Shown here one piece after another: positions 19,013 through 19,777 of a DNA stretch of 24,008 nt. Numbering within the stretch: the first letter of the stretch is position 1; the number at the start of each line of letters is the position of its first letter. A program made the translations under genes and the position numbers. Below the pieces are notes generated by a model that did not search any database, was not told the origin of the DNA, and worked only from the letters and a program-made list of their open reading frames with translations. This DNA is from a virus (taxonomy: Duplodnaviria; Heunggongvirae; Uroviricota; Caudoviricetes): the IMG/VR virus record IMGVR_UViG_2671180360_000013, positions 1-24,008 of that record; one strand, 5' to 3'.

Positions 19013-19210
19013 GTTTGTTGTGGTTTTTTCTTTAGTTCATGTATTTCGATTTGTTTCTGAATTATCGGGGGTAGTGTCTTCCCTTTTCCCTGAGGCTTAT
19101 CATGCAGTTATTTTCGCCATCTTGGTATTGTGGAAATACCGACATCCATAGCTTTGGTGAGCTCTGTTCAGGTGGCCAAATTCAGAAAACCATTACGGAG
19201 GAAGAAGGCG

Positions 19211-19777
19211 ATGGCTAAACCAGCGCGAAGACGATGTAACCGTAAAAGAGAAGATTTAACTGTTAAAAGGATATTTGAGTTACTAAGTTTCGATAAATCT
19301 ACCGGGGTATTTAGATGGAAAGTTCCCACTCAGGGAAGGATAGCATTAAATAGTGTTGCTGGAACTTTTGATTCCAACGGTTATTCAATGATCATGATAG
19401 ATGGGCGTAGATATAAAACTCACGTCTTAGTTTTTTACATAACTCATAATCGTTGGCCTGCTGGTCAAATTGACCACGTTAATGGAATTAGGACCGACAA
19501 TAGGCCAGAAAATTTAAGAGAATGCCTGCCAATAGAAAATTCAAGAAATATAAGGATCCGAAAGAATAGCAAATCAGGTTGCAGAGGGGTTACTTGGCAC
19601 AAACGACAGAAAAAATGGAATGTTAGGCTAGGATTCCATGGCAAGAGTAAACACTTCGGATGCTTTGATGATCTGGAGTTAGCGGTACTAGTTGCTGAAG
19701 AAGCCCGAGATAAGTATTACGGTGATTTTTCCGGCAACGAAAGGAGCACTTATGCGAATCTATCGAAGGAAATGTAA
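19211..19777 (+). CDS. HNH homing endonuclease with AP2-like DNA-binding domain, fused to the first codons of ninG
   Basis: Internal start MAKPARRRC (identical to recalled lambda NinG N-terminus) with GGAGG Shine-Dalgarno; HNH motif [19 protein letters not shown]; AP2-like segment [27 protein letters not shown]. Confidence 0.75.

Follow-up and report, generated by a model that had tools for sequence, protein, structure and literature searches.

The stretch of DNA analysed here (24,008 nt; hereafter, the window) carries the nin region of a lambdoid prophage, in which the O/P replication genes, ren, ninB, a Dam-type methylase gene, ninE, a composite HNH-ninG feature, a NinI-type phosphatase gene and Q are arranged in this order. 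The order is based on Pfam matches and on the annotation of a record 100% identical to the window over positions 19100-19900. The composite feature comprises two overlapping reading frames, listed as ORFs at 19130-19777 and 19692-20354. The sequence, the RefSeq annotation and the comparison across genomic contexts place the actual starts at ATG 19211 for the endonuclease and at ATG 19752 for NinG, and the two genes overlap by 26 nt (Table 1). The first-pass annotation had the former gene running from 19130 to 19777; the ORF exists and ends as described, but the start conserved across contexts is ATG 19211.

The phosphatase gene (window 20351-21016) lies directly 3' of ninG without ninH, which is present in some other loci bearing the HNH gene. 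Between ninE and the HNH gene, ninF is replaced by an AT-rich ORF on the minus strand (window 16846-18699; 617 aa from the first ATG, 590 aa in RefSeq), which belongs to phrog_9230 (unknown function) and was also found in the Stx1 phage AU6Stx1. This ORF received no match in Pfam or NCBIfam, and looks like a moron of unknown role. A sigma-70-like promoter is found near it on the minus strand (18747-18718). The 617-aa ORF and the HNH gene are divergent, and between them lies a TATTTC hexanucleotide microsatellite of 13.8 copies (window 18934-19016). With 4 to 14 copies in 38 related loci, the repeat is hypervariable and could thereby alter promoter spacing. In a promoter and terminator scan of the HNH gene, nothing exceeded the expectation from shuffled sequences.

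Table 1. Features of the HNH-ninG locus (window coordinates).
Feature	Position	Strand	Remarks
ninF-3'/ninG-5' junction remnant (lambda type)	19198..19239	+	Shine-Dalgarno, ATG 19211, ninG codons 1-9 plus 2 nt
HNH-AP2 endonuclease ORF, 188 aa	19211..19777	+	Residues 1-9 NinG-derived, 10-15 linker, family-homologous body from about 16
Imperfect 20/21-nt tandem duplication (AGACGATGTAACCGTAAAAG / AGAAGATTTAACTGTTAAAAG)	19229..19269	+	TRF score 54; spans the left junction
Cassette proper	19240..19835	+	596 nt in place of 64 nt of lambda-type ninG (lambda 42461-42524, codons 10-31)
HNH (beta-beta-alpha-metal) nuclease motif, residues 68-107	19412..19531	+	Pfam HNH_3 PF13392
Putative AP2-like DNA-binding domain, residues 123-171	19577..19723	+	Three strands, then a helix
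New NinG ribosome-binding site (AAAGGAG) and ATG	19741..19754	+	Within the 3' end of the HNH ORF; RefSeq annotates NinG from ATG 19752
Rewritten ninG codons 1-28	19752..19835	+	Last 84 nt of the cassette
Rest of ninG, lambda type (codons 29-200 of the new protein)	19836..20354	+	96.9% identical to lambda

The alignment with phage lambda that the first-pass annotation had proposed as a check gave sharp boundaries: nucleotides 1-29 of ninG are fused in frame to the HNH-AP2 ORF, and NinG proceeds from a new ATG. In the local pairwise alignment, 40 of the 42 nt of the junction remnant are identical to lambda 42419-42460, and the ATG and the 26 nt following it are identical without exception (29/29 nt). 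GGAGG is found at 19197-19201, 9 nt upstream of ATG 19211, and the remnant of the ninF-ninG junction is now the translation start of the HNH ORF. The protein starting at 19211 opens, as had been noticed at first pass, with the first nine residues of NinG, MAKPARRRC; the N-terminus of lambda NinG reads (M)MAKPARRRC. In Escherichia coli ETEC1718 and PK8241, a complete lambda-type ninF precedes the HNH gene, the identity to lambda runs upstream through all of ninF, and the ninF stop codon overlaps the ATG of the HNH gene exactly as ninF overlaps ninG in lambda. Considering (i) the 29/29-nt match and (ii) the intact ninF upstream of the HNH gene in other genomes, the MAKPARRRC match is due to homology, not to chance. 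We also considered the nine residues as a generic linker shared by any gene that follows ninF, and rejected this idea, as NUMOD4-HNH and KilAC antirepressor genes share the ATG and then diverge at once. The same three observations exclude the scenario against which the first-pass annotation had set its own reading, namely a coincidental MAKPARRRC match between a divergent ninG allele and an unrelated upstream gene. We assign a negligible probability to this scenario, and likewise to an intron or an intein, given that Rfam yielded no match at E <= 1 in 18700-20400 (i.e., no intron) and that the HNH ORF is closed by its own stop codon while NinG has a separate ATG, which is incompatible with an intein and protein splicing. 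With neither a ribozyme around the ORF nor a protein-splicing domain, the element is free-standing.

The sequence between ATG 19211 and Met60 contains no further in-frame ATG, GTG or TTG. Without any alternative start before Met60, the HNH ORF depends on the start codon of ninG. Being fused in frame to the Shine-Dalgarno sequence, the ATG and nine codons of ninG, it also inherits, in the contexts in which ninF is retained, the overlap of ninG with the end of ninF. The identity over nine codons allows the start of the HNH gene, and that of ninG behind it, to be assigned with confidence. The tandem duplication across the left junction is rarely expected by chance: any such array appeared in 2 of 1000 shuffles, and none of them crossed the junction. 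The two copies are in different frames, and deletion of the first copy would throw the HNH ORF out of frame. The duplication may have been left behind by the original illegitimate join, or a later event that restored the frame may account for it.

The remainder of the 188-aa protein belongs to a known family of nucleases. The HNH_3 domain was detected well above the Pfam cut-off (E = 4.2e-11; 42.7 bits versus 24.8), and the protein hit PHROG phrog_99, 'HNH endonuclease', with E = 1.4e-71, whereas the AP2 match remained below its cut-off (E = 1.8e-4; 22.2 bits versus 33.3). Of the HNH plus AP2-like content described at first pass, the HNH part was thus recovered above its cut-off and the AP2-like part below it. 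No match was obtained in NCBIfam for three proteins, including the HNH protein and the 617-aa ORF. In an alignment of 15 homologues, D88, H89, N101 and N110 are invariant. Homologues begin at about residue 12-16 of the HNH protein; other members start 2-9 residues ahead of the LRxLLxYDPxTGVFRW motif, and the protein in the window has an N-terminal extension of 15 residues. The closest phage proteins come from Jersey-like Salmonella phages and T5-like phages, where they are annotated as homing endonucleases; they share 41-44% identity and align only from residue 16. At the other end, the last 12 residues or so are a read-through into the rewritten 5' end of ninG. The AlphaFold model (pLDDT 87.8) has strands at 127-152 and a helix at 155-173, and its confidence is low at both tails, i.e., residues 1-10, which are derived from ninG, and residues 180-188, which are read through into the new ninG 5' end. 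In Foldseek searches, the best fold match in the PDB was I-HmuI (1u3e), followed by plant AP2/ERF domains, with weak E-values (0.01-0.1). The AP2 fold matches included AtERF1 (1gcc; TM 0.67, rmsd 1.3 A), WRI1 and TEM1; 1gcc, 7wq5 and 7et5 received a probability of 1.00 with E-values of only 0.03-0.1. A sequence search of the PDB gave a weak AP2 match only. By family criteria, the protein is predicted to be an HNH (His-Me finger) endonuclease. HNH enzymes of the I-HmuI and T5 F-Tfl type are often nickases. The 23 SNPs in the HNH ORF divide into 11 synonymous and 12 non-synonymous ones (dN/dS about 0.29), which is consistent with a protein under constraint.

Downstream of the HNH motif and the AP2-like domain, ninG starts anew. 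An AAAGGAG motif at 19741-19747, 4 nt upstream of ATG 19752, provides NinG with a Shine-Dalgarno sequence of its own inside the 3' end of the HNH ORF, which bears out the restart and the overlap reported at first pass. The 28 codons that follow are rewritten: they share 56% DNA identity with the corresponding 93 nt of lambda, have a GC content of 29% against 51%, are 3 codons shorter, and keep cysteines at the positions aligned with those in lambda. From 19836 (TGTGGAACCAAG...), where the right block of the lambda alignment starts, the identity to lambda is about 97% up to the end of ninG. The protein, compared with lambda NinG/Rap, is full-length, in spite of the 56% DNA identity over the first 28 codons as opposed to 97% thereafter. 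Its 200 residues match Pfam PF05766 (E = 1.9e-83; 279.5 bits; residues 4-194 against profile positions 5-192 of 193) and phrog_171 (E = 2.2e-117). Because the rewritten codons 1-28 come with their own Shine-Dalgarno sequence and ATG, a complete NinG is still made. We rejected the possibility that ninG is split in pieces in the manner of Aeh1 nrdA, since the downstream ORF alone makes up the full NinG and the nine-codon stub is part of the HNH protein. The first-pass annotation proposed a gene that had been invaded while its expression was preserved; ninG is indeed whole, but this was achieved by restoration through AT-rich substitute codons 1-28, not by mere preservation.

The two blocks of similarity to lambda are separated by 64 nt in lambda and by 596 nt in the window, which indicates a replacement that lengthened the locus by 532 nt net. 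The 596-nt cassette, 538 nt of which are occupied by the HNH ORF, joins lambda-type ninG at TGTGGAACC. The element had been described as an insertion into the 5' end of ninG, and the in-frame fusion inside ninG holds, but a pure insertion does not. The structure comprises capture of the start codon, a 64-nt deletion and a portable substitute for the 5' end that brings its own ribosome-binding site. In the phage collection, the rewritten N-terminus was found at 99% identity or higher only in four records, all bearing the HNH gene, and the next best sequence had 61% amino acid identity; tblastn with the 32-aa rewritten N-terminus otherwise retrieved ordinary NinG alleles alone, none of them exceeding 61% identity. 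This restriction to HNH-bearing records implies that the rewritten segment belongs to the cassette.

Variation at the 5' end of ninG is seen in phage H-19B as well. In H-19B ninG (L149 786-1391), the first 87-93 nt are 76% identical to lambda and the remainder 96%. The patch of divergence falls on the very stretch that the cassette replaces, and is similar in length to the cassette segment. It is tempting to speculate that the 5' end of ninG may be a recurrent battleground. The ninG alleles of O157:H7 have, apart from this, a 9-nt in-frame insertion (GAAAAGGCA) in a lysine/glutamate-rich stretch (L005 about 4890-4900).

In its combination of an HNH_3 motif with a putative C-terminal DNA-binding module, the HNH-AP2 protein resembles free-standing phage HNH homing endonucleases (T4 MobE/MobA, T5 F-Tfl and the I-HmuI fold), and it shares with them a size of 150-200 aa, an AT-rich gene and a sporadic presence at a fixed site. 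Comparable genes with HNH_3 and AP2 occur in Jersey-like Salmonella phages and in nin regions elsewhere in E. coli. Nevertheless, those free-standing genes lie between genes or within introns and have starts of their own (e.g., L148 2537-3064), whereas the ninG element is fused to nine codons of its target. It is established that free-standing homing endonuclease genes of phages home into a neighbouring or host gene and are sometimes inserted inside genes (PMC2988022). The same article, and Friedrich et al. 2007 cited there, treat gene-splitting cases, namely Aeh1 mobE in nrdA and T4 mobA in the gene for the large subunit of topoisomerase. As in these cases, a free-standing HNH gene is found here inside a conserved coding region, and the function of the host gene survives. 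The means of survival differ, however: in Aeh1 nrdA and T4 mobA the host gene became two polypeptides that need to be reassembled, while ninG is rebuilt whole from a substitute 5' segment supplied by the element. A second parallel comes from organelles, in which in-frame fusions of endonucleases to upstream exons and duplications of gene termini with mobile elements are known (PMC8393795). In both systems, the endonuclease borrows the translation signals of the host gene, and the mobile unit carries a replacement piece of the host gene, giving rise to a hybrid gene. The organellar examples mostly involve LAGLIDADG or GIY-YIG enzymes and usually an intron or the 3' end of a gene. In contrast, the ninG element is bacterial/viral, has no intron and affects the 5' end, and its host gene receives a new ribosome-binding site and ATG.

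The cassette is widespread in E. coli. We found 571 copies of the 596-nt sequence, all at least 99% identical, in 538 of the 5426 complete E. coli genomes (about one genome in ten), and roughly 571 of the 1821 lambda-type ninG places are filled with it. The cassette is also carried by the Stx1-converting phages AU6Stx1 and SH2026Stx1, and the members of the protein cluster are named from E. coli and Salmonella enterica. It is common in pathogenic lineages holding many lambdoid prophages. Almost all of the 571 copies have an intact HNH ORF. A few copies are decaying: an IS3 element is inserted between the Shine-Dalgarno sequence of ninG and its ATG in strain PK8241 (L006 3550-4763), a 1-nt deletion causes a frameshift in an IMG/VR copy (L063), and one E. 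coli genome encodes a truncated product of 104 aa (P0003). A search of 5.8 billion proteins recovered no relatives of the HNH protein between 99% and about 47% identity and did not reveal the source lineage of the HNH gene and the rewritten ninG segment; a scan of GTDB species representatives with the HNH protein gave one distant planctomycete match and no cassette. Databases label the gene plainly as 'HNH endonuclease' without comment, and we found no description of the ninG element in the open-access literature. Other E. coli prophages bear different endonuclease genes, of the HNH_3/AP2 and NUMOD4-HNH types, in the nin region (L147 1908-3358; L148 655-3064), where these genes are located after ninB, before the methylase gene, or at the position of ninG immediately behind ninF. 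This region seems to be a hotspot for genes of this kind.

To see how the cassette is distributed over ninG alleles, we compared 59 filled loci (the window counted) with 81 empty lambda-type loci, mostly from IMG/VR. The empty loci were picked by similarity to lambda NinG, which means that the diversity of empty alleles is under-sampled, and the samples from IMG/VR and RefSeq are heavily redundant for O157, O26 and O111. Measured over 141 loci, TGTGGAACC is spaced from the ninG ATG by 93 nt in the 81 empty ones, by 625 nt in the 59 filled ones and by 624 nt in one frameshifted copy; apart from this copy and an IS3-bearing one, there are no intermediate spacings. The cassette is thus present or absent at one precise site, and filled and empty alleles share flank haplotypes. 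The upstream neighbourhood of the filled loci varies, with ninF in 21 of them and the AT-rich block of the window type, with the 617-aa ORF, in 38. O157:H7 represents a third upstream context, where the hexamer repeat preceding the HNH gene is itself preceded by an IS30 remnant, while the ETEC1718/PK8241 type displays the clean ninF-HNH-ninG arrangement. In the MAFFT-based comparison of flanks, the right flanks of the filled loci fell into 19 clusters at the 1.5% level, six of which are shared with empty alleles, and one filled right flank is identical to an empty one. Nucleotide diversity is 0.004 within the cassette, roughly one fifth of the value for the adjoining 50 nt (0.023); in the interval 51-100 nt ahead of the shared ATG, it reaches 0.087 in the ninF contexts. 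The right-flank diversity of filled alleles equals that of empty alleles already in the first 40-nt bin. When cassette presence is paired with the SNPs located 9 and 33 nt beyond its right edge, all four gametes are observed; linkage is tighter on the left side. The cassette is therefore younger or more uniform than its flanks and resides in several backgrounds, as is characteristic of a mobile gene.

Altogether, we consider it fairly probable that the 596-nt unit is a free-standing homing-endonuclease gene of the HNH-AP2 type that has settled within the 5' end of lambda-type ninG (rap). The pattern of variation fits a young element that may have entered many ninG alleles via short conversion tracts and still encodes a constrained protein, and homing by the cassette is probable on population-genetic evidence. 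The mosaic evolution of lambdoid phages is a textbook case and is usually credited to general and illegitimate recombination, not to homing endonucleases; ordinary homologous recombination among lambdoid phages together with the clonal expansion of EHEC could have spread one ancient insertion across backgrounds. The cassette would then be a passive fossil module, born of a single illegitimate recombination with an AT-rich phage that had an HNH gene beside its own ninG, and the HNH protein would not be homing at ninG now, or ever have done so. We judge this unlikely, though by no means far-fetched: lambdoid mosaicism is well established, the flanks of many loci undergo recombination, the genome sample has a clonal bias, and degenerate copies exist. 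Filled and empty lambda-type ninG copies, moreover, coexist in many single genomes, which indicates that conversion is not automatic in lysogens. Nevertheless, for a passive marker, a gradual decay of linkage is more to be expected than the roughly five-fold step in diversity at the right edge of the cassette with recombinants within 9 nt. Likewise, the ORF is intact in nearly every copy with its catalytic residues kept and a dN/dS of about 0.29, and precisely such a replaced stretch would be needed for immunity to a site-specific enzyme.

If the cassette does home, the process can be pictured as follows. When a lambdoid genome with an empty ninG is replicated alongside, the enzyme would nick or cut it within or next to the 64 nt missing from the cassette-bearing allele. 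Repair of the break from the latter allele, by means of the 29 nt and the ninF homology on the left and the ninG homology on the right, would then copy the cassette in. The rewritten segment would serve both as immunity to self-cleavage and as a patch that keeps ninG functional. The precondition for such immunity is observed, in that the 64-nt stretch is replaced by a sequence of 56% identity. Going further, we tentatively suggest, as a possibility that we rate below an even chance, that the cassette represents an active, self-complementing homing element built in a way not described for phages, one that takes over the start codon and uses the rewritten segment to immunise and rebuild ninG at the same time. 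Alternatively, the endonuclease may act mainly as a weapon of prophage competition or exclusion against co-infecting lambdoid phages with a sensitive ninG, the copying of the cassette being a side effect. The gene lies in the early-expressed nin region, its frequency is high in the pathogenic lineages mentioned above, marker exclusion of related phages is known for phage homing endonuclease genes, and further roles are being reported (PMC13096335). We still regard a weapon as quite improbable, as there is neither an NCBIfam match nor a linked defence gene; mechanistically it makes the same prediction as homing, and sequence cannot separate the two.

The element resides in the nin region of lambda-type phages, including O157:H7 prophages and Stx1-converting phages, and exemplifies how a selfish nuclease can settle inside a conserved gene with neither an intron nor an intein, by capturing the start codon and carrying a portable 5' end of its target. 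An active enzyme would represent a new site-specific HNH-AP2 nuclease, with a target that can be guessed to within about 64 bp, and it would direct gene conversion around ninG and Q, beside the Shiga-toxin genes in Stx1-converting phages. If the cassette is indeed an active self-complementing element, the divergent 5' ends of ninG (the lambda, H-19B and cassette types) would record a running conflict between an endonuclease and its target.
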